The notes under the pieces were generated by a model. That model was given only the letters and a program-made list of their open reading frames with translations, ran no database searches and had not been told where the DNA came from. A stretch of 47,928 nt of DNA, taken from a virus. The DNA lies in the IMG/VR virus record IMGVR_UViG_3300020582_000001, positions 1 through 47,928 of that record. One strand, given 5' to 3'. Every line of letters begins with the position of its first letter. Position 1 is the first letter of the stretch. Below, piece by piece: positions 28,623 to 47,928 of the stretch. Made by a program: the position numbers and the translations under genes.

Positions 28623-28867
28623 CAGTTCAACGCCTGAGAGCCGGGGTTGGCAGCGACAACGCGATAGGATTGCTTCACCGCATCCGTTACCCCGGTGCCC
28701 TTGCCTAGAACCTTGAGGAAATCCATCTTAGCCGCGATGGAGTTGCCTTCAAGAGCAAAACACACCGTCAACGCGAGGATATTGAACGCCCGGTTAACAT
28801 CAGGTTCATCCTGCAACGCCTTTAGAAAAGCTTCTGCTGCCTTCTCCGCATCAATCAACTCGCCCAT
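28622..28867 (-). CDS. Hypothetical protein (81 aa)
   Basis: The ATG at 28867 overlaps the stop of the upstream mini-gene (TGATG). Its stop overlaps the phosphoesterase start. Confidence 0.55.
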   Translation of the reverse strand: MGELIDAEKAAEAFLKALQDEPDVNRAFNILALTVCFALEGNSIAAKMDFLKVLGKGTGVTDAVKQSYRVVAANPGSQALN

Positions 28868-29022
28868 CAACCTAACTCCTCGATCAAATCACCGATTGCA
28901 TTCACGACATCTTCCTCGATTTCCATATCTACATCGGCTTTCAGGGGGAAGAGACCGGTGTCAATCACACCCCTATCACAAAGCATGTCAAAGATAGCTT
29001 GAGCGAGCTTTTGAATATCCAT
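28867..29022 (-). CDS. Tiny acidic protein, paralog A (51 aa; below the track cutoff)
   Basis: Hand-translated: MDIQKLAQAIFDMLCDRGVIDTGLFPLKADVDMEIEEDVVNAIGDLIEELG. 13 Asp/Glu versus 3 Lys/Arg. One-base stop/start overlaps (TGATG) at both ends. Confidence 0.6.
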   Translation of the reverse strand: MDIQKLAQAIFDMLCDRGVIDTGLFPLKADVDMEIEEDVVNAIGDLIEELG

Positions 29023-29147
29023 CAACCTAACTCCTCAATCAATTCGCTGATTGCATCAACAACATATTCCTCAGTGCAGTTGTGAGAAATAACCCCCATC
29101 TCGTCGAGCAAGTCATAGATGTCTTGAGCGAGCTTTTGAATATCCAT
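29022..29147 (-). CDS. Tiny acidic protein, paralog B (41 aa)
   Basis: Hand-translated: MDIQKLAQDIYDLLDEMGVISHNCTEEYVVDAISELIEELG. It shares the N-terminal MDIQKLAQ and C-terminal LIEELG with paralog A. Confidence 0.6.
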   Translation of the reverse strand: MDIQKLAQDIYDLLDEMGVISHNCTEEYVVDAISELIEELG

Positions 29148-29278
29148 CAGATGTTGTCCTGCAAGATATCGGCAATGTCGTCAACCAACTCGGCTTTGGT
29201 ATAACCAGCGTAACCAAAGTCCAAGTCAAGTTCAATCAAAAGGTCAACGATCAGTTTAGCCACCGCATCAAAGTCCAT
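29147..29278 (-). CDS. Tiny acidic protein, distant paralog C (43 aa)
   Basis: Hand-translated: MDFDAVAKLIVDLLIELDLDFGYAGYTKAELVDDIADILQDNI. GGAG lies 9 nt upstream. Its stop overlaps the start of paralog B. Confidence 0.55.
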   Translation of the reverse strand: MDFDAVAKLIVDLLIELDLDFGYAGYTKAELVDDIADILQDNI

Positions 29279-34898: not shown

Positions 34899-35131
34899 TC
34901 GGTGGCCGGGAGATTGTCCAATTGTATCCATTTGCCTGTTTGATAGGCCCAAGCGGTTCCATCTGTTGCTACGGCATAAAGCCGGCCAAAACACACCGTC
35001 ACGCTGGCGAACTTACGGGGTGCTGGCTTGTATTGTGCCGCCCGTTTGGCAGCGACTTCGGCGAGCGCGTTAGCTTGTTTGGCAGCAACTTCGGCGAGCG
35101 CGTTAGCTTCAGCTTGTGCATCAAAACCCAT
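34895..35131 (-). CDS. Hypothetical protein (78 aa) with internal 11-aa duplication
   Basis: SD aggagg lies 8 nt upstream. ANALAEVAAKQ/ANALAEVAAKR is encoded by a 33-bp tandem duplication (35045-35077 / 35078-35110). Confidence 0.6.
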   Translation of the reverse strand: MGFDAQAEANALAEVAAKQANALAEVAAKRAAQYKPAPRKFASVTVCFGRLYAVATDGTAWAYQTGKWIQLDNLPATE

Positions 35132-38180: not shown

Positions 38181-39950
38181 ATGAGTTATGCGATTTTGCA
38201 GGCTGCCCTCCGTTTGGCAGAGGCTGGTATCCCGGTATTCCCCACCAGTGGGAAGATGCCGGTAACGATGTACGGATTTAAGGACGCTACCTCGCATCGT
38301 AAAACGATTACCGATTGGTTTGAGCACACGGATTACAACATCGCCATTGTGCCAGCCTCAGCGGGTTGGCTTGTGGTTGATGTTGATCTAGGTGCTGATC
38401 CTGATTTGGTGAGCCAGTTACCACCAACATTTACGGTTCGTACACCGTCTGGTGGTCATCATTATTATTACGACGATGAGGGCCTGGGCGAGATAGGAAA
38501 TGCGAAACTCGCCGCTAGGGTTGATATCCGCCATGCAAGCGGATACGTGCTCGTGCCACCATCGGCGGGGTATGTTCAGATTGATCGACGTGATCCTGTT
38601 CCTTTGCCAAAGTGGGTGAGTGAGAAGCTTGCACATAGGTCGGATGCTCCGGCCCACGTGGAAGGCTCTCCGGTGGCCGTGGATGAGCTATTAAGCACCA
38701 TAGGCAGAATTGACCCGGCTTGCGATTATAACGCCTGGGTGCGCGTCCTGGCGGCTTTGGCAGCTACTCCATATGAGCCGAAGGATGGTGAGCTTAGCAA
38801 AGCGGATATCGCCATAGCTTGGTCAAATGGGGAGTACAGCGGGGAGGTTCCGGCTAACGCGTGTGGGTACGATTATGACATGGAGGGTAAGCTCGCCTCG
38901 TTTGGTAGTGAGGGAGTGGGTTATGGGACGCTGCTATATCTGGCTTACCCACCAGCGACAACAGCGATCCCGGATGATTTGAATGCGGATAGGTTTACCG
39001 CCGAAGCCTGGCTGGCTCGCGACGATCTCGCGGAACGGGAGCAGTTGATCGGTCCCATAAGCAAAACATCAAGAGTGATGCTGGTGGCACCGACAGGAGT
39101 AGGCAAAACGCACGTGGCGATGGCGATAGCATGTAGTATATCGTCTGGAGTGTCATGGTTGCCTCATTGGAATGTACCGTCAGCGGAGAGAGTGCTGTAC
39201 ATCGACGGTGAAATGCCAGCGACGTTGATTAGGGATCGGATTAAGGAAGCGGTTAGCCGAGTGGGAGTTGATAATCTCCAAGGTAGGCTAACATTTCTCA
39301 ATTACGCCGACTTTCTGTCAGAGCTAGGTGGCTTCCCAGCTATGGAGAGTGTGGATGGTCAGGTTTTTATCGACGATTGGCTGAAACAGACTGGAGCGAA
39401 GTTTGTGATCTTCGACAACATACAGAGTTTGACCATCGGGGATATGAAGGAAACGGATAGTTGGAGAATGGTGCAAGCATTTTGCCGCAAGCTAACGGAT
39501 CAAGGGATCGGGCAATTGTGGGTGCACCATGCTAACAAAGATGGGAGCATGTACGGGGATAAAACGAGGGCGTATCAGTTCGACACGGTTATGAGTTTGA
39601 AGCCGGTCGATGATAGCGATAAGGAAACGGACGAATTGACGTTCGATCTTGGGTACCAGAAAACGAGGGAACTGCACCCGGAGAAAACTGCGGCTTGGTA
39701 TGCAACAGGGAGAGTGTCGCTTTCAAAATCACTCGGCTGGCAGTTTCGATCTAAAGCGGCGATCGAAGAGCGAGCGATTGTGGAAGCGGTACAAGGTGGG
39801 GAAACGTACACAACGGGGGAATTGGTCGAATTGCTCGGTATCAACAAAATGACGTTAGGGAGGTACGCGAAAGGGAAATGGTCCAAGTACGTTGTACTGG
39901 GATCAAAACCCCTTCGCTGGATGATGTCACGTGTTACCGACGATTTTTAG
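38181..39950 (+). CDS. Bifunctional primase-polymerase (PrimPol) fused to a RepA/DnaB-like P-loop helicase domain
   Basis: N-terminus: ..AGIPVFP..GFKDAT..VVDVDLG..TPSGGHHYYY..DIRHASGYVLVPPS (PrimPol signature). C-terminus: Walker A VMLVAPTGVGKTHVA and Walker B KFVIFDNIQSL. It is the only plus-strand gene inside the early arm. Confidence 0.85.
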   Translation: MSYAILQAALRLAEAGIPVFPTSGKMPVTMYGFKDATSHRKTITDWFEHTDYNIAIVPASAGWLVVDVDLGADPDLVSQLPPTFTVRTPSGGHHYYYDDEGLGEIGNAKLAARVDIRHASGYVLVPPSAGYVQIDRRDPVPLPKWVSEKLAHRSDAPAHVEGSPVAVDELLSTIGRIDPACDYNAWVRVLAALAATPYEPKDGELSKADIAIAWSNGEYSGEVPANACGYDYDMEGKLASFGSEGVGYGTLLYLAYPPATTAIPDDLNADRFTAEAWLARDDLAEREQLIGPISKTSRVMLVAPTGVGKTHVAMAIACSISSGVSWLPHWNVPSAERVLYIDGEMPATLIRDRIKEAVSRVGVDNLQGRLTFLNYADFLSELGGFPAMESVDGQVFIDDWLKQTGAKFVIFDNIQSLTIGDMKETDSWRMVQAFCRKLTDQGIGQLWVHHANKDGSMYGDKTRAYQFDTVMSLKPVDDSDKETDELTFDLGYQKTRELHPEKTAAWYATGRVSLSKSLGWQFRSKAAIEERAIVEAVQGGETYTTGELVELLGINKMTLGRYAKGKWSKYVVLGSKPLRWMMSRVTDDF

Positions 39951-39985
39951 AAAGTGAGGAACAGCAACGCTAAAAGCGGGTAACA

Positions 39986-40018
39986 CTGTAACCCCCTATA
40001 ATAGGGGGGGTGTTACAG
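39986..40018. terminator. Imperfect hairpin between convergent genes (bidirectional terminator candidate)
   Basis: ctgtaaccccctat / ataggggggtgttacag (ccccc:ggggg plus gtaa:ttac with a bulge). It is followed by ttttaaggttttgggtttt on the plus strand and by cgctttt on the minus strand. Confidence 0.55.
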
Positions 40019-40060
40019 GTACCCTTTTAAGGTTTTGGGTTTTCCCGGTAACACTGGCGG

Positions 40061-40312
40061 TTAGCGATACGAAAGAAGGTCGAGCCGCTGGTGATCCTTA
40101 TCGCACTCGGTACAACGATGACATGGAAATTCGCCGGAGCATTGGTGAGTGTTAGCTTCGGGTTCCAATTCAGATTTGAGGTATGCTAACAATTGGCGGG
40201 CTTCATCGTCCGAGATAGCGGTGCACCCAAGTTTGCCGTCAATTGTTAGCCTGAACCAAGAGAGGGTGAAGTGGCGCTCGATTGTGACAGTGGGTCCTAT
40301 GTTAACGATCAT
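40061..40312 (-). CDS. Hypothetical protein (83 aa) with C-terminal Cys/His cluster
   Basis: AGGAG lies 5 nt upstream. ..HQCSGEFPCHRCTECDKDH.. is a possible zinc-binding motif. Confidence 0.6.
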   Translation of the reverse strand: MIVNIGPTVTIERHFTLSWFRLTIDGKLGCTAISDDEARQLLAYLKSELEPEANTHQCSGEFPCHRCTECDKDHQRLDLLSYR

Positions 40313-40320
40313 GCTAACTC

Positions 40321-43064: not shown

Positions 43065-43410
43065 TGGTGATGTCCTTGGCTGATAACATCGACGCTCACT
43101 CTTGCTGTCGAATGAGCGCAGTCTTATCAGCGATCCGCGACTTACCAATGGTGCTTACCTCATCCGGGCTGCTCACTGCACAATCGCTCATCGTCTCGAT
43201 TGCCTCGCTTGCCTTGCCGGTTATCTCAGCACCCGTTTGCACGGTACCAGCCGATCATGCCCGCTATCTTTCATCGGGTCGGCTGGTCTATCGCCTTCTC
43301 GGCGTACCTCAGAACGGTGAGCCCGTCTGACAGGACCGAATATGATCGTATCAATCACACCTTGCAACACATTTATTAGTTGAGTTGCATTCAATCATTG
43401 AGTGTGTGAT

Positions 43411-43604
43411 GTTAGCATACATGATATATGATGCGCATTATGATTAGGCGATTTGTATGCAATATATTTCATGCTAACTTCGTGCCACATTCGATCAGAG
43501 ACCGGGGGTATCGTGCTGGCCGGATGCTAACGTGCGTGCGATGGGGAAATTCCTACCCAAAATGTGCGGCGACAAAAATTTTTGAGTATGCTAACTGTTA
43601 GCAT
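43411..43604. promoter_or_regulatory. Cluster of five ATGCTAAC sites (operator-like), including a perfect 8-1-8 palindrome
   Basis: gttagcat 43411-43418, atgctaac 43471-43478, atgctaac 43524-43531, and atgctaac-t-gttagcat 43588-43604. Two more gctaac cores lie at 43619-43624 and 43628-43633. Confidence 0.6.
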
Positions 43605-43606
43605 TC

Positions 43607-43635
43607 TTGACACCAGGAGCTAACTACGCTAACAT
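43607..43635 (+). promoter_or_regulatory. Sigma70-like promoter candidate for the late (terS) operon
   Basis: TTGACA (43607-43612), a 17-nt spacer, then TAACAT (43630-43635). The terS ATG at 43642 would lie at or next to the predicted +1. There is no SD within 15 nt of the ATG. Confidence 0.4.
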
Positions 43636-43641
43636 ACCTTC

Positions 43642-44151
43642 ATGAACACGATCTTAGAAGACAGCAAGCTCGGTCCCGCCATGTCTAGCCTGAATGCCAG
43701 GCAAAGGTCATTCGTGATCGCCTATTGTGCCACTGGTGGCAAGAACGCCGTAGGAGCGGCTAGAACCGCAGGCTACGAGGGTACAGACGTGTCCCTTCGC
43801 GTTCAAGCCCACCGGCTGGCGCATTCCGAGGCGGTCCAGGCAGCCATCCACGAGGAAGTCGGTCGCCGGCAGCAGGCCCTCGCCCCGATGGCACAATTGA
43901 ACATCGAAAGGATCGCCAATAACACGCTCAACCGCAATTCATTCGAGGCCAACAAGCTTCTCCTGGCCCTAGCCGGTCACTCCGCAGTGCAAAAATCCGA
44001 GCACAAGGTCACTCAGGAGCTTACCACCAAGGAAATGATTGAGGAAATCCGCAAACTCGGCGCTACCCTGGGGGCAAACGTCGTCAAATCGCTCCTGCCA
44101 CCCACAATCGACATCACTCCGACCTCAGTGGTAGTCGATGACGACTTCTGA
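43642..44151 (+). CDS. terS: Terminase small subunit (Terminase_2-like)
   Basis: ..LNARQRSFVIAYCATGGKNAVGAARTAGYEGTDVSLRVQAHRLAHSEAVQAAI.. is the classic HTH opening of Terminase_2 small subunits. It lies directly upstream of terL. Confidence 0.8.
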   Translation: MNTILEDSKLGPAMSSLNARQRSFVIAYCATGGKNAVGAARTAGYEGTDVSLRVQAHRLAHSEAVQAAIHEEVGRRQQALAPMAQLNIERIANNTLNRNSFEANKLLLALAGHSAVQKSEHKVTQELTTKEMIEEIRKLGATLGANVVKSLLPPTIDITPTSVVVDDDF

Positions 44152-45637
44152 CCTCGAAACTCTCGACCGGAGCGAGCTAAACCGGATACTCGCGGGCCTC
44201 AAAGCGGCTGAGAAGCTAAAGCAAAGGGCAAAACTTGACTTCTTCGTACCCTACCCTAAGCAATTGGAGTTTTACAGGCTCGGCGCAACGAAGCGCGAGC
44301 GTGTTATCATGGCTGGAAACCAGCTTGGAAAGACGGAGTGCGGTGCCGTCGAGATGGCTTTCCATCTCACTGGTCTCTACCCCAAATGGTGGCCTGGAAA
44401 ACGTTTTACGAAACCCATTATGGCATGGGCCTGTGGGGAAAGCGCAGCAAAGGTAAGAGATGTCCAACAATCAAAACTCTGTGGACACCATACGATCGCT
44501 CAGTTGCCGAGTGACGAAGGTTGGGGAACTGGTTTTATCCCCCGGCACCTGCTTCTCGGTAGAACTCTCGGACATGGAACTACAGGCGCTTTTGATACGA
44601 TCACTGTCCGTCACACCACAGGCGGAATTAGCGTCCTTGGTTTTAAGTCTTATGTCCAAGGCCGTGCCCTGTTCCAAGCCGACAGCCTCGACCTGGTTTG
44701 GGAAGATGAGGAACCGCCTGGCGACGTTCATTCGGAGTGTAAGGCGCGCATAACCGCTACTGGCGGAATGCTCTACATGACCTTCACGCCGCTGAACGGC
44801 ATTACCGAGATTGTGTCGGATTTCTACCCAGCCCCCAATTCCGTCAGTCGGGGCTTTGTGCTGATGGGGATGAGGGACGTTACCCACATTCCCAATCCCG
44901 AGGAAGTGGCTGCCGGTTACAAACCTTTCGAGCGCGAAGCCCGCGTCAATGGCATTCCCCTCTTGGGCTCAGGTGCCGTGTGGGAGGAAGTGTCACCTGA
45001 CATGATCCGTGTGCCACCAATCCCGCTTAGTGAGATACCGCCTTTCTGGAAGAAGATAGCCGGGGTGGACTTTGGCATTGGTCACCCTTTCGCGTGTGCT
45101 ACCCTTTGTCACGATGCCGATGCGGATATCGTCTATGTCGTCCACGAACACAAAGTTGCAGATGCAATGTCCGCACTGCATGTCGCTGCACTCCGTCCCG
45201 TCCTCGGAGAAATTCCTGTCGCGTGGCCACATGACGGGGGAGACCGTGAAAAATCCACAGGCATACAGCTTGTCGAAAGCTACCGCGATCTTCCCGGCAG
45301 TCCTGGCTTGCGGATGCGGCCTACTCACGCTACTCACCCGCGAGGAGGCTATTCAACTGAGGCTGGTATAGATGCCATCCTGATACGGATGCGCACTGGC
45401 CGCTTCAAGGTTTTCAGCACCCTCGTCAACTGGTGGTTAGAGTTTGGAAGCTACCATCGCAAAGATGGTTTGATCGTAAAAAAGAATGATGACTTGATGT
45501 CCGCAACAAGGCAGGGTATTATGGACCTTCGGTACGCCCGCCCTGTGCTGTTCGGGAGACCGCCTGCGCTCAAAAAGCCAGGACCGCCTCAGCAGCTTGA
45601 CCCTTGGACAGACAGGCCGGTGAAACTTGGCTACTAA
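44138..45637 (+). CDS. terL: Terminase large subunit
   Basis: 499 aa. ..YPKQLEFYRLGATKRERVIMAGNQLGKTECGA.. (Walker A-like GNQxGKT), an ..LVWEDEEP.. acidic Walker B-like motif, and a C-terminal nuclease-like half. It overlaps terS by 14 nt. Confidence 0.9.
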   Translation: MTTSDLETLDRSELNRILAGLKAAEKLKQRAKLDFFVPYPKQLEFYRLGATKRERVIMAGNQLGKTECGAVEMAFHLTGLYPKWWPGKRFTKPIMAWACGESAAKVRDVQQSKLCGHHTIAQLPSDEGWGTGFIPRHLLLGRTLGHGTTGAFDTITVRHTTGGISVLGFKSYVQGRALFQADSLDLVWEDEEPPGDVHSECKARITATGGMLYMTFTPLNGITEIVSDFYPAPNSVSRGFVLMGMRDVTHIPNPEEVAAGYKPFEREARVNGIPLLGSGAVWEEVSPDMIRVPPIPLSEIPPFWKKIAGVDFGIGHPFACATLCHDADADIVYVVHEHKVADAMSALHVAALRPVLGEIPVAWPHDGGDREKSTGIQLVESYRDLPGSPGLRMRPTHATHPRGGYSTEAGIDAILIRMRTGRFKVFSTLVNWWLEFGSYHRKDGLIVKKNDDLMSATRQGIMDLRYARPVLFGRPPALKKPGPPQQLDPWTDRPVKLGY

Positions 45638-47456
45638 AGACCCGTTTGCTACCGGCGACTATAGCGCTAATTACACTGGTGGCAACGACCACGAGGAAGA
45701 GAAGCTTGCTTTCTATATCCAGCTTTTCAACCAGCTTCGGGCCAGACGCGTAAATTTTGAGTTGCAATGGGAGGAAACCGCTTCCCTCTGTTGGCCCGAG
45801 TACCAGAGCAGCTTTTTCTTCGGCCGCGACGTTGCACCTGGCATGAAGCGCCAGCAATACCAACTTGACACCACTGCCCAGGTCAGCAGCCATCGTTTTG
45901 GAGCTATAGCCGAATGGTTGCTGACGCCCACCAATCTTATGTGGTCTGCTGTATGCGCTGGGGGCGAGAACGGCGAATACCTCATGAAACGCAGGGAAGT
46001 CGCCCTCTATTACGAGCAACTGACCCGCATCATGTGGATGGAGCGTTATAAGCCCGAAGCAAACTTCATTGGGCAAAATTCCCAAAATATGCAGGGCCTC
46101 GGTGTCTTCGGCAACATGGGGATGTTCACTGACGAGTATTGTGACACTGTTGACCCCAAAAAGCGCGGTCTGAGCTACCTAGCTACTCCGGTTGGTGAGA
46201 TTTATGTTATTCGAGACCATCAGCGCCGGGTCGTGGGCTTCATCCGTCATTTTCGCCTTACCGCTCAGCAGGCCAAACGCAAGTGGAAGGACAAGGTTGT
46301 TCCAGTCCTTGAGGCGGCATTACAGATTAACAGCACGCAGCTATACGACTTCCTGCATATTGTGCGCCCGCGTGATGATTATAATCCGGGTTTTCTGCTC
46401 TCCCCGAAGGGCAAGAAATACGAGAGCGTGTACATTTCGTACCAGGGTCACTGCATTCTTGAAGAAAGTGGATATCGCACTATGCCTCTGGCATATGGCG
46501 CTTATATGCAGGCCCCCGATGAAGACTATGGGCGCGGGCCTGCTCAGATGGTGCTCGCGAGCCTTAAAACGCTCAACGCGGAGAAAGCCATCTTCCTCAA
46601 GCAAGGACATCGTGCATCTGATCCTGCTTATCTCATTGGAGACACAGGGCTTCTCGACTTACGCACAAACTCAGGCTCGTTTAACGCGGGGGGTGTAACT
46701 CCTGATGGGCGGCCCCTTGTACACATTCTTCCGACAGGTGAAATCCAGATTACTGAAAAGATGATGGAGAATGAGCTAGTCGGGGTGAACGATGCTTTCC
46801 TGGTCAATCTGTTCAAGATGATTATGGAAAATCCTACTGACATGAATTATCGCCAGGTGTTGGAATACGTTAATGAACGCGGTATCTTCCTGGCTCCGAC
46901 GATTGGTCGCCAATGTAGCGAGTATCTTGGTCCTCTCCACGATCGCGAACTTGATATTTTATCCTGGCTTCGCAAACTGCCCCCGGTGCCTCCCATACTC
47001 AAAGAAGCAAAAGCTGGACTTGACTACCAAATTGTTTACTCTTCACCTATCGCGCGATCGGTGCAGTCGCAGGAGAGCGCTGGGTTTATGCGAATTGTGG
47101 AGTGGGCCTCTGCCACCAGCCAGGCGATTGGTGATCCGTCGTTGATGGACAACTTCGACTTCGATACTTCGATCGCGGCTATGGGCAAACAGTCTGCTAC
47201 TCCGCCCTCCTGGTTTTCTTCCAATGAGCAGAAGGCTAAGGCGCGTAAGGCTAGGGCTGATGCTGAGGAACGGTCGAACCAGGTTAAGGAATTGCCGGGT
47301 AAGGCAGCTATCATGAAGGCACAGGCTATCAGCGACAAAGCGGGCGCTGGGCAAAATACTGGTGGTGCTCTAAGTGGCACGCCGCCCACAGGTATGCCGG
47401 GTGTGCCAAATCAACAAGGTCAGATTACTAACAACCAAGGATTTCAAGGCCCATGA
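45627..47456 (+). CDS. Portal (head-tail connector, podovirus gp8-like)
   Basis: 609 aa, directly after terL. TTG start overlapping the terL stop (no upstream ATG in frame). Size, position and the Gln/Gly-rich C-terminal tail fit podovirus portals. Confidence 0.8.
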   Translation: MATKDPFATGDYSANYTGGNDHEEEKLAFYIQLFNQLRARRVNFELQWEETASLCWPEYQSSFFFGRDVAPGMKRQQYQLDTTAQVSSHRFGAIAEWLLTPTNLMWSAVCAGGENGEYLMKRREVALYYEQLTRIMWMERYKPEANFIGQNSQNMQGLGVFGNMGMFTDEYCDTVDPKKRGLSYLATPVGEIYVIRDHQRRVVGFIRHFRLTAQQAKRKWKDKVVPVLEAALQINSTQLYDFLHIVRPRDDYNPGFLLSPKGKKYESVYISYQGHCILEESGYRTMPLAYGAYMQAPDEDYGRGPAQMVLASLKTLNAEKAIFLKQGHRASDPAYLIGDTGLLDLRTNSGSFNAGGVTPDGRPLVHILPTGEIQITEKMMENELVGVNDAFLVNLFKMIMENPTDMNYRQVLEYVNERGIFLAPTIGRQCSEYLGPLHDRELDILSWLRKLPPVPPILKEAKAGLDYQIVYSSPIARSVQSQESAGFMRIVEWASATSQAIGDPSLMDNFDFDTSIAAMGKQSATPPSWFSSNEQKAKARKARADAEERSNQVKELPGKAAIMKAQAISDKAGAGQNTGGALSGTPPTGMPGVPNQQGQITNNQGFQGP

Positions 47457-47705: not shown

Positions 47706-47903
47706 GTGGCTGACACTCCGTCAACACCCTCGGAAATCCGAGCAGAACTAAAGGTCGTGAAGCGCCTTGTCGCTGAGCTACCTATCCAACATGCGCTAAA
47801 CCTGGAGGGGTTGCAGAACCTCGCCGCCGACTACTTCGGTACTCATCCGCGTTGGAATGAGTTTGTCCAGGCTGCGAACCGTATGGTGATCGCCAATGGC
47901 TGA
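47706..47903 (+). CDS. Hypothetical small head-module protein (65 aa)
   Basis: GTG at 47706 follows AGGA. Its 3' end lies inside the terminal repeat (= 1..102) and overlaps the scaffold ATG. Confidence 0.5.
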   Translation: MADTPSTPSEIRAELKVVKRLVAELPIQHALNLEGLQNLAADYFGTHPRWNEFVQAANRMVIANG

Positions 47904-47928
47904 TGGTGATACCCCAATCGTCGAGGAA
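47802..47928. repeat. Terminal direct repeat, right copy (identical to 1..127)
   Basis: Exact 127-nt identity with the window start, read directly. Confidence 0.95.

Follow-up and report, generated by a model that had tools for sequence, protein, structure and literature searches.

The 47,928-nt window analyzed here, which is the whole stretch of viral DNA under study, carries a noncoding gap (43065–43641) that separates a set of small, leftward genes from a rightward terS–terL–portal operon, and the comparisons described below support this gap as a conserved control region. The phage has no known cultured close relative. A near-mode DNA search of the gap and the terminase genes against 50,697 phage records returned no match, a distant-mode search of the same number of records returned one 143-nt match, to terL of Microcystis phage MJing1, a TerS protein search found nothing, and a scan of genome contigs gave nothing beyond the remnant of a degraded prophage in a MAG of an alphaproteobacterium. 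Upstream of terS, the layout differs both in Rhizobium RHph_N2 and Microcystis MJing1, the described phages whose TerL is nearest, and in the TerL relatives L008 and L009 (L numbers denote the lineages compared here). Nothing meaningful came from a tRNA scan or from Rfam searches, whether at the gathering threshold or at a permissive one. The initial annotation had described the gap as AT-leaning, which is true of positions 43330–43641 (42% GC) but not of 43065–43330 (56% GC), the genome as a whole being 54% GC.

The terS gene (43642–44151, plus strand) encodes a 169-residue small terminase that matches PF03592 at 27.7 bits (cut-off, 26.1 bits) and phrog_51 with E = 7.7e-12, and the Pfam match makes it a member of the SPP1 G1P family. 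No in-frame start codon precedes 43642, and a downstream start is ruled out because a conserved GPAM motif sits at residues 11–14. An N-terminal helix–turn–helix domain spans approximately residues 11–72; an AlphaFold model (pLDDT of 94–97 over residues 11–70) places helices at residues 36–42 and 49–60, and the modeled domain superposes on the DNA-binding domain of SF6 G1P (4zc3/2cmp) with a target TM-score of 0.85 and an rmsd of 1.4–1.8 Å. The latter helix in the model, α3 (codons 49–60; 43786–43821, plus strand; DVSLRVQAHRLA), occupies the recognition-helix position. By sequence, the nearest solved TerS structures are those of the Pseudomonas podoviruses PaP3 and NV1 (6w7t, E = 7e-10). The large terminase, encoded by terL (44138–45637, plus strand), has Terminase_6N and 6C domains and shares 39% identity with P22 gp2 over 93% of its length; this relatedness suggests headful (pac) packaging and leads us to expect that the genome contains a pac site. 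The assembly of the window as a circle with a 127-nt overlap is compatible with headful packaging.

Eight copies of the 8-mer ATGCTAAC/GTTAGCAT are present in the window (39529+, 40183+, 40311+, 43411−, 43471+, 43524+, 43588+, and 43597−), against 1.22 ± 1.12 in dinucleotide shuffles, none of 100 of which reaches eight. This recount agrees with the initial annotation, which had counted eight copies, five of them in the gap, and had called for such a shuffled control; its copy positions also stand, except that 40310 is correctly 40311 on the plus strand. The five gap copies lie inside 43411–43604; when the gap was simulated 20,000 times with a first-order Markov model, the mean was 0.02 copies and the probability of at least two was 1e-4. 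Together with two GCTAAC cores at 43619 and 43628, they make up a terS-side array of seven motif copies in 43411–43633, four of which lie beside or inside a TTGACA-17-TAACAT promoter. The gap sites are spaced by 60, 53, and 64 bp; the cores and these spacings are as first reported, and the distances of 53–64 bp show no helical phasing. The start of the terS coding sequence holds no motif copy and thus no equivalent of pacR (box C). To our knowledge, and judged by eye, none of the consensus sequences for CtrA, IHF, CRP, σ54, and ECF factors fits the motif.

The ATGCTAAC repeats ahead of terS are real and conserved: in relatives whose TerS is 83–98% identical, the sites are kept, with variation in copy number and half-site spacing. 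Site 1 (43411–43418, minus strand; an exact match) is unchanged in L001, L002, and L003 and falls within an invariant noncoding block (43362–43440; TTGCAACACATTTATTAGTTGAGTTGCATTC...), at the left edge of which the relatives' alignment with L001 ends and which is partly kept in L023 (TerS 62% identical). The block is likely the leftward promoter region, and site 1, which as the 10-mer ATGCTAACAT shares nine of 10 bases with the −10 region GTGCTAACAT of the predicted L024 terS promoter, could also serve as an extended −10 for transcripts that run leftward. Candidate positions for the leftward start are ∼43402 and ∼43334. Site 2 (43459–43478, plus strand) is a unit, GCAATATATTTCATGCTAAC, with an exact 8-mer at 43471–43478; since this unit is found once in the window, twice in L021, and in extra tandem copies in L001 and L002, its copy number differs across strains with TerS of 83–98% identity. 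Site 3 (43524–43531, plus strand; an exact match), located between the two conserved elements described below, is found in L001 and L002, is mutated or absent in L003 and L021, and is probably dispensable. Sites 4 and 5 form the perfect 8-1-8 palindrome ATGCTAAC-T-GTTAGCAT (43588–43604), 2 nt upstream of the −35 box. L003, L021, and L022 have an 8-0-8 version of this palindrome, L024 and L050 have in its place two direct (G/A)TTAGCAT repeats 11 bp apart, and L054 has TTAGCGCTAAC 4 nt before the −35.

The first of the two conserved elements, which is G-rich (AGAGACCGGGGGTATCG, 43497–43513), is conserved throughout the TerS family: an GACCGGGG-type element is found 120–191 nt upstream of terS in approximately 20 lineages, most of them with a GGGG...CCCC hairpin, and RNAalifold on the element gives four invariant G–C pairs and zero covariation. 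We consider it a candidate cleavage or assembly core. The second element, TGTGCGGCGAC followed by AAAAATTTTT (43563–43583), is invariant in L001–L003 and present in L020, L021, and L023; other lineages show C(A)CGCGG and then a T-run at the same relative place. Positions 43566–43573 (GCGGCGAC) share eight bases with the 12-nt lambda cohesive end. At the other side of the gap, the GC-rich, conserved leader of the leftward operon (43066–43340, minus strand) is predicted to be unusually structured, with a minimum free energy of −109 kcal/mol against −87.9 ± 5.0 for shuffles (z = −4.2), and in a hairpin CTGATAAC...GTTATCAG (∼43080–43132) the pairing, as read from the alignment, is kept despite different inner sequences in L001 and L003. 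A 48-codon GTG ORF noted earlier in this leader (43096–43242, minus strand) shows no coding signal by codon position (7/4/7 and 6/9/6 substitutions, without third-position bias) and is interrupted by a 2-nt gap in the L003 alignment; it is probably not a gene.

The predicted σ70-type terS promoter (43607–43635, plus strand) consists of TTGACA (43607–43612), a 17-nt spacer, and TAACAT (43630–43635), with 10 of 12 matches in the promoter scan; its arrangement, and that of the palindrome that ends 2 nt before it, is just as the initial annotation described. Two motif copies fall within the promoter, GAGCTAAC (43617–43624) and ACGCTAAC (43626–43633). TAACAT is separated by 6 nt from the terS ATG (43642), which is the predicted +1, and terS is preceded by no Shine–Dalgarno match of at least 3 nt; most other genes in the window show AAGGA or AGGAG. 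Across lineages, TTGAC[AT] is kept 29–38 nt before the terS start codon in 16 cases, and the layout of a −35, 17–18 nt, TAA[CG]NN, 6–9 nt, and ATG recurs, with TAAC-type −10 elements family-wide, including lineages that lack GCTAAC. The window thus has the geometry of a leaderless gene, with a −10 ending 6–9 nt before the start codon and no Shine–Dalgarno, and the earlier suggestion of a leaderless terS mRNA, now backed by the conserved −35-to-ATG distance, is well supported, at least for an mRNA that is leaderless or nearly so. In L020, L023, L025, and L014, the terS leader does contain a Shine–Dalgarno.

GCTAA/TTAGC half-sites within 80 nt of terS were counted for a TerS helix class, [SA]LR[VF]QA[HYS]RL, and for lineages with other helices. 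Half-sites are found near terS in all nine lineages of the helix class (mean, 2.2), against a mean of 0.32 in 22 others (Mann–Whitney p = 1.7e-5), and at least two are present in six of the nine versus none of the 22 (Fisher p = 1.1e-4), in statistics that ignore phylogeny and use a class defined after the first examples had been seen. A single GCTAA lies near terS in seven of the 22 other-helix lineages, which exceeds the chance expectation of roughly 15%, and part of the half-site signal may simply be the TAAC-type −10; the physical linkage of the adjacent promoter and DNA-binding-domain coding region could also contribute to the association. The peptide SLRVQAHRLA is identical in the window, L024, L049, L050, L051, and L054, with only three to five of 10 third codon positions shared; because the codons differ at most third positions, the sharing of the helix appears to be old and maintained by selection rather than the result of recent transfer. 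The link between helix and motif takes the form of a double dissociation: L020 and L023 have a window-like TerS C-terminal part (64–66% identity), a different helix, and no array, whereas L024 has an unrelated C-terminal part (30%), an identical helix, and the sequence GTTAGCAT-cga-GTTAGCAT-TGACA...TGCTAACAT. Five lineages were chosen by helix sequence before their DNA was seen, and four of these (L049, L050, L051, and L054) carry the motif at the promoter, the fifth (L053) having one-mismatch versions. L049 has only two GCTAAC in 15.5 kb, both at the promoter, and the single GCTAAC in 13.3 kb of L051 is also at the promoter; L004, L013, and L016 have none in 6.5–9.8 kb. Where the helix differs, the layout recurs with different half-sites, such as GGATAAC-aaa-GTTATCC in L036, GATAAC-ctc-GATAAC in L032, and GATAAG-tgc-CTTATT in L029. 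The sites accordingly co-vary with the recognition helix between specificity groups, as is the case for lambda-type cosB. Because the motif co-varies with helix α3, the candidate binder is TerS itself, and we revise the initial proposal of a tiny early protein or a host factor in this sense.

The window contains a second cluster of 10 GCTAAC at 38853–40318 (Poisson P ∼1e-11 relative to the rest-of-genome rate and 5e-9 relative to a uniform rate); taken alone, the three exact 8-mer copies beyond the gap do not reach significance, but the 6-mer core does. Five of the cores (40060−, 40151−, 40185+, 40245−, and 40313+) lie at 40060–40318, over the last leftward gene (40061–40312), together with GTTAAC at ∼40301 and an inverted pair, GCTAACAATTG / CAATTGTTAGC (repeat I8). 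All sites of this part are kept in L003 and L007, even though in L007 the sequence that separates the inverted pair is divergent. The other five (38853+, 39252−, 39287+, 39491+, and 39531+) form a looser run at 38853–39536 in the Prim-Pol/helicase gene; those at 39287 and 39531 are kept in L003, and L049 and L050, which have the same genome layout, show no counterpart of the run. A search of IMG/VR with the Prim-Pol protein returned only close relatives. In this cluster, GCTAAC is more often on the sense strand (∼10 sense and three antisense), a bias judged not significant. The cluster, 3.3–4.8 kb from the terS-side array, is absent from L049 and L050 and is not predicted by a simple pac model.

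Our preferred reading, which we hold to be on balance probable, is that the ATGCTAAC/GCTAAC copies are a putative TerS recognition and autoregulation array. Helix α3 of the N-terminal helix–turn–helix domain would read the copies, which flank and overlap a host-type TTGACA-17-TAACAT promoter from which a leaderless transcript would start at or next to the terS ATG. Bound TerS would mark this stretch of concatemeric DNA as the place of terminase assembly, TerL would make its cut close by, the G-rich and GCGGCGAC elements bracketed by the sites being possible places, and rightward headful packaging would follow. The promoter geometry also fits self-repression: with TerS on the palindrome next to the −35 and on the copies within the spacer and −10, transcription of terS–terL would be throttled, in what we infer to be negative autoregulation. 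A packaging signal, a late promoter, and a leaderless start codon would then be packed within ∼60 bp. How the small terminase chooses viral DNA is still debated, SPP1/SF6-type proteins appear nonspecific in vitro, and few pac sites have been defined; this phage family would provide a natural series of matched recognition-helix/half-site pairs on a constant promoter scaffold, and in many uncultured phages the G-rich hairpin and the CGCGG/T-run, both strongly conserved, may mark the core at which terminase cleaves or assembles.

We think it unlikely, but give it due weight, that the sites are instead operators of a separate factor, from the host or among the small early phage proteins, that times the early-to-late switch at divergent promoters. 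The palindrome, from −54 to −38, abuts the −35, and the spacer and −10 contain more copies, a classic operator geometry in which, as for CI/Cro-type repressors, operators overlap the promoter; the cluster where the leftward operon ends is also easier to explain by a regulator of that operon than by a packaging signal, and the window has many small early ORFs with no assigned function. In these small ORFs, however, we find no regulator, helix–turn–helix, or repressor domain, in line with the initial annotation, which recognized no repressor or Cro-like gene, and no cognate repressor gene of the CI/Cro type was found next to the operators. The only early proteins of the window common to L049, L050, or L024, genomes that carry the motif and of which L049 and L050 are sampled in part, are e186, the Prim-Pol N-terminus, and TerS, and the motif-carrying lineages have no other window DNA-binding protein in common. 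There is, moreover, no obvious reason for a host factor to follow a helix of TerS. The lack of GCTAAC in 6.5–9.8 kb of L004, L013, and L016 also speaks against a separate factor.

Less likely again is a more far-reaching version of TerS recognition, in which TerS proteins of this family would be truly sequence-specific, with a readable code (α3 variants paired with GCTAAC, GATAAC, and ATAAG), and in the window lineage might also bind at both ends of the 3-kb leftward early operon. Late in infection, TerS on the promoter-side array and on the 38853–40318 cluster would shut off early transcription and nucleate packaging; if true, the early-to-late switch would be coupled to terminase accumulation.

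More doubtful still is the possibility that the 8-mer serves chiefly in promoter recognition: RNA polymerase, together with the host sigma or a phage factor, would read it as an extended −10, TG-c-TAAC(A/T)N, and its copies would represent several promoters in both directions. The copy at 43626–43635 occupies precisely the −10 position that goes with a consensus −35, site 1 reads ATGCTAACAT and faces the leftward genes, the −10 elements of L024, L050, and L025 are TGCTAACAT, ATGCTAACAA, and ATGCTAACTT, and a TAAC-type −10 is family-wide. A good −35, however, is present only at the terS copy, and the inverted and direct repeats lie 0–4 nt from the −35 with an 11-bp period (L024, L050, and L026), which is not how promoters stack. 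In L049 and L051, the motif is found nowhere else in 13–15 kb and is therefore not a general promoter element, and the window encodes no RNA polymerase or sigma factor. Finally, it is highly improbable that the sites are replication-origin iterons bound by the Prim-Pol/helicase C-terminal domain, with the second cluster as a partner region on the model of P4 ori and crr: the Prim-Pol/AAA_25 gene does have GCTAAC clusters in its 3′ half and immediately after its end, the C-terminal 90 residues of Prim-Pol give weak helix–turn–helix matches (E ∼0.08), A/T tracts adjoin the sites, and the unit copy number differs between strains, but L049 and L050, which share the gene order and the Prim-Pol N-terminus, have no GCTAAC near that gene and do not conserve the Prim-Pol C-terminal region, and the motif tracks TerS instead.

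The proposed recognition of the array by TerS can be placed in the context of known systems. The lambda PRM/cI unit is a leaderless, autoregulated promoter whose product binds operators beside and over it; cI, however, is a dimeric repressor, unrelated in protein and purpose to the ring-forming packaging protein proposed as the binder here. The sites of lambda cosB, unlike those of the window, are not known to overlap a promoter. Like cosB (R3/R2/R1, bound by the winged helix–turn–helix of gpNu1), the gap has several mixed-orientation sites in ∼200 bp before terS, which adjoin more conserved elements. The cosB R sites of lambda, 21, and N15/Monarch likewise change together with the TerS recognition helix, and cosB comprises simple and complex arrays per specificity (PMC4669245), comparable to one palindrome in L049 versus seven copies in the window. 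Differences from lambda are that the window TerS is of another fold family, that TerL groups with the P22-type rather than the lambda-type enzymes, and that the window was assembled as a circle. The excerpted report on PaP3 and NV1 describes a ring-forming TerS and a proposed short specific site bound through neighboring helix–turn–helix motifs, which resembles our proposal; PaP3 differs in that it is a cos phage and that the proposed contacts are lysines in other helices, and within that excerpt neither promoter overlap nor autoregulation is described (PMC7672466).

The closest parallel is with the Bacillus siphoviruses SPP1 and SF6. In SPP1, pac shares sequence with the PL1/PL2 promoters and the beginning of gene 1, its pacL and pacR portions are the targets of Gp1, and TerS binding both starts packaging and represses synthesis of the terminase (PMC6316719; PMC4737164), as is proposed here. 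Around the TerS ring, neighboring helix–turn–helix motifs are separated by roughly one turn of DNA (PMC4737164), a spacing that the 11-bp direct repeats in L024, L050, and L026 fit. The window shares with SPP1/SF6 a PF03592 TerS with the same DNA-binding-domain fold (TM-score of 0.85 to 4zc3, in the model), sets of repeats upstream of terS that span its promoters, and what appears to be a headful-type TerL. The SF6 TerS DNA-binding domain bound DNA in vitro without sequence preference (PMC4737164), whereas the window repeat is a sharply defined 8-mer, palindromic or direct, that co-varies with helix α3. In addition, pacR repeats lie inside the start of terS in SPP1 and none do in the window, SPP1 has a ribosome-binding site where the window terS mRNA appears leaderless, and the window virus is a podovirus with a T7-type portal and an extra, distant cluster of sites. 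By this analogy, the terS-side array is most likely a variant of the arrangement already known from SPP1.

The 8-mer ATGCTAAC is present in eight exact copies in the window against 1.22 expected, and five of these fall within 43411-43604 upstream of the small terminase gene terS, where simulations matched to the composition of the gap yield a mean of 0.02 copies. All eight copies listed in the initial annotation are found, the eighth at 40311 rather than 40310; the additional pair of GCTAAC cores, at 43619 and 43628, is confirmed, as is the perfect 8-1-8 palindrome (43588-43604) that ends 2 nt upstream of TTGACA. The proposed promoter reads TTGACA, a 17-nt spacer, TAACAT, six further bases and the terS ATG. 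The gap had also been described as AT-leaning, which holds only for 43330-43641 (42% GC), and a 48-codon ORF placed in the early leader lacks a coding signature.

The window is a circular assembly, with bases 1-127 recurring at 47802-47928, and thus a genome of 47,801 bp. The plus strand carries terS (43642-44151; PF03592), terL (44138-45637), a T7-type portal gene (45627-47456) and structural genes across the circular junction, and a block of small genes runs on the minus strand from 43064 down to 40061. The replication genes beyond a plus-strand Prim-Pol/AAA_25 primase-helicase gene (38181-39950) form a module on the minus strand (DNA polymerase A, an Enc34-type ssDNA-binding protein and a DUF2800 nuclease). 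Searches of the window genes gave no integrase, repressor, sigma factor or RNA polymerase. The last 90 residues of the primase-helicase (39678-39947) give weak helix-turn-helix matches (HTH_DeoR, HTH_17 and HTH_5; E about 0.08-0.14), and conservation of this tail does not extend to the homologues from the relatives L049, L050 or L028.

There is no in-frame start for terS further upstream, and the conserved GPAM motif at TerS residues 11-14 excludes a downstream one. TTGAC[AT] is found 35-38 nt ahead of the start codon in the window lineage and in the terS-carrying contigs of relatives L024, L026, L050, L054, L053, L004, L016, L012, L032, L029 and L030, with 17-18 nt between it and a hexamer of the type TAA[CG]NN or similar, and 6-9 nt from there to the start codon; L049 and L028 have shorter -35-to-start distances of 29 and 31 nt. 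Since TTGAC would occupy so narrow an interval by chance in <1% of lineages, and since terS has no Shine-Dalgarno match, unlike most genes of the phage, which show AAGGA or AGGAG, the earlier suggestion that terS mRNA may be leaderless, or nearly so, is well supported by this recurring geometry. A leaderless start is not universal: in L020, L023, L025 and L014, terS is preceded by a leader that includes a Shine-Dalgarno sequence.

Close relatives (metagenomic contigs L001, L002/L007, L003, L011, L021 and L022; TerS 83-99% identical) retain the minus-strand site at 43411, the unit GCAATATATTTCATGCTAAC (43459-43478), the palindrome and both promoter copies. Because the unit is present in one to three copies, the palindrome is spaced 8-1-8 or 8-0-8 and the site at 43524 is missing from L003 and L021, we view the sites as separable 8-bp modules in an expanding and contracting array.

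Across more distant lineages, the motif tracks one helix of TerS, and from this sequence comparison we infer that TerS probably reads the 8-mer. In a predicted model (pLDDT 94-97 over residues 11-70), helices 36-42 and 49-60 make up a helix-turn-helix motif, which can be superposed on the DNA-binding domain of SF6 G1P; helix 49-60 reads DVSLRVQAHRLA. L024 TerS is ~35% identical to that of the window overall (30% in the C-terminal part, 65% in the DNA-binding domain) and has the same helix; its promoter reads GTTAGCAT-cga-GTTAGCAT-TGACA-acga-TGCTAAG-tcag-TGCTAACAT-ggggac-ATG. TerS of L020 and L023 are 64-66% identical in the C-terminal part, with helices SSVDKQAYRLV and SNAKQYAYRLA, and upstream of terS GCTAAC is absent in L020 and present as one degenerate copy in L023. 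Five lineages were picked on helix sequence alone and their DNA fetched afterwards. L049 has TTGACA-caatt-ATGCTAAC-agg-GTTAGCA-ATG and no other GCTAAC in 15.5 kb; L050 has ATTAGCAT-ggg-ATTAGCAT-g-TTGACA...ATGCTAACAA; the sole GCTAAC in 13.3 kb of L051 directly precedes terS; L054 has TTAGCGCTAAC 4 nt upstream of the -35; and L053 has versions with one mismatch, ATGCTAAT and GTTAACAT.

Within 80 nt of terS, nine helix-class lineages carry on average 2.2 copies of GCTAA/TTAGC versus 0.32 in 22 others (p=1.7e-5, a statistic that ignores phylogeny), and at least two copies are found in six of the nine versus none of the 22, in a class defined post hoc with its first cases already known and for which the five later lineages serve as the forward test. 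The promoter and the coding region of the DNA-binding domain are physically linked; third codon positions of the common helix mostly differ between lineages, which argues for an ancient association rather than recent transfer. Lineages with other helices show the same layout with other half-sites: GGATAAC-aaa-GTTATCC in L036, GATAAC-ctc-GATAAC in L032 and GATAAG-tgc-CTTATT in L029. In L049, L050 or L024, counterparts exist for no compared window protein other than TerS, the Prim-Pol N-terminus and a 186-aa protein; the last of these is also present in L028, a lineage without the motif. Separately, L042 and L043 are one 46.8-kb IMG/VR contig with a terS at each end, the two having similar C-terminal parts and different DNA-binding domains and upstream sequences; this looks like co-assembled strains differing in a TerS specificity module.

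Other elements of the gap are also conserved. A G-rich element, AGAGACCGGGGGTATCG (43497-43513), recurs in about 20 lineages at 120-191 nt ahead of the terS gene, even where TerS identity falls to about 30%, usually as AAAAGACCGGGG followed by a GGGG...CCCC hairpin without measurable covariation; on the minus strand it is terminator-like in most lineages, not in the window. A second element, TGTGCGGCGAC followed by A5T5, lies at 43563-43583. As ATGCTAAC sites bracket both, the two elements may form a cleavage or assembly core. A block at 43362-43440 is invariant in close relatives, its left edge being the point where relatives cease aligning with L001. The 275-nt stretch to its left folds unusually strongly as minus-strand RNA (z = -4.2) and probably serves the leftward operon as a structured leader. 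It contains a hairpin, CTGATAAC...GTTATCAG (43080-43132), directly ahead of the first leftward gene's Shine-Dalgarno sequence; the inner stem differs in L001 and L003 with complementarity kept, and a role in processing or in the control of translation is possible for this hairpin. Irrespective of helix class, the G-rich element is flanked on its left by arrays of GCAAC(A)AT(A/C)TTGCGC-type repeats (L049:9740-9860, L050:9620-9850, L004:3150-3235, L016:300-400, L024:400-575 and L028 upstream of 9944), with only remnants in the window (TTGCAACACATTT at 43362 and GCAATATAT at 43459); a second factor of greater conservation may bind these arrays, or they may represent an origin.

A second cluster of ten GCTAAC lies in 38853-40318 (P about 1e-11), and those of its sites that overlie the last leftward gene persist in L003 and L007, even across diverged intervening DNA. 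An origin tied to the Prim-Pol gene is argued against by L049 and L050, which have no counterpart of this cluster; if TerS binds here, DNA looping or early-operon shut-off would be possible. Where the primase-helicase gene and the leftward operon converge, the gap (39975-40060) has two copies of GGTAACAC and a strong hairpin, GTAACACTGTAACCCCCTATAATAGGGGGGGTGTTAC, followed by T-runs, probably a terminator; the hairpin is also present in L007, where its inner bases differ (CTCTC/GAGAG). L049, which has the genome layout of the window, carries an IS1595-family transposase gene within the leftward small-gene block (L049:5706-6749).

Eleven of about 29 contigs of at least 6 kb (L016, L020, L021, L022, L029, L031, L033, L036, L037, L038 and L042) end 12-620 nt upstream of terS, compared with ~1.5 expected by hand estimate for random terS placement, and in L022, L025 and L012 the contig start is no more than about 10 nt from a GCTAAC/GTTAGC site that closely precedes the -35. 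These could be true DNA ends or assembly breaks at a module boundary that is variable and rich in repeats. In the window, the E. coli Chi octamer GCTGGTGG is found 10 times on the plus strand (eight within plus-strand late genes) and three times on the minus strand versus 0.7 expected per strand, at positions including 3989, 6244, 7027, 13499, 13547, 15427, 17738 and 20921, and its 7-mer core CTGGTGG occurs in 30 and 12 copies versus 2.9 expected; Chi-like protection or codon/dipeptide bias could account for the excess. This excess and an alphaproteobacterial prophage remnant provide hints to the host. The commonest 8-mer of the window is TGGTGATC/GATCACCA (21 copies on both strands versus about 1.5 expected), and repeats comprise 54-62-nt direct units of 81-85% identity near 28.9-29.1 kb (28864-29149) and a tandem 33-nt pair at 35044-35109.

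By analogy, the region upstream of terS would have the working logic of both the SPP1 and lambda-like systems. In lambda-like phages, conserved cosQ and cosN adjoin variable cosB R sites, which co-vary with the TerS recognition helix, and one specificity can have simple and complex arrays (PMC4669245). In SPP1, Gp1 binds pacL and pacR, gp2 cuts in pacC, and the terminase represses its own synthesis (PMC6316719; PMC4737164). Around the TerS ring, neighboring helix-turn-helix motifs are separated by about one turn of DNA (PMC4737164), consistent with the 11-bp direct repeats of L024, L050 and L026. The window region shares the protein family, fold and promoter overlap of the SPP1 type, but its terS lacks repeats inside the gene start, and we therefore regard it as a variant of that type.
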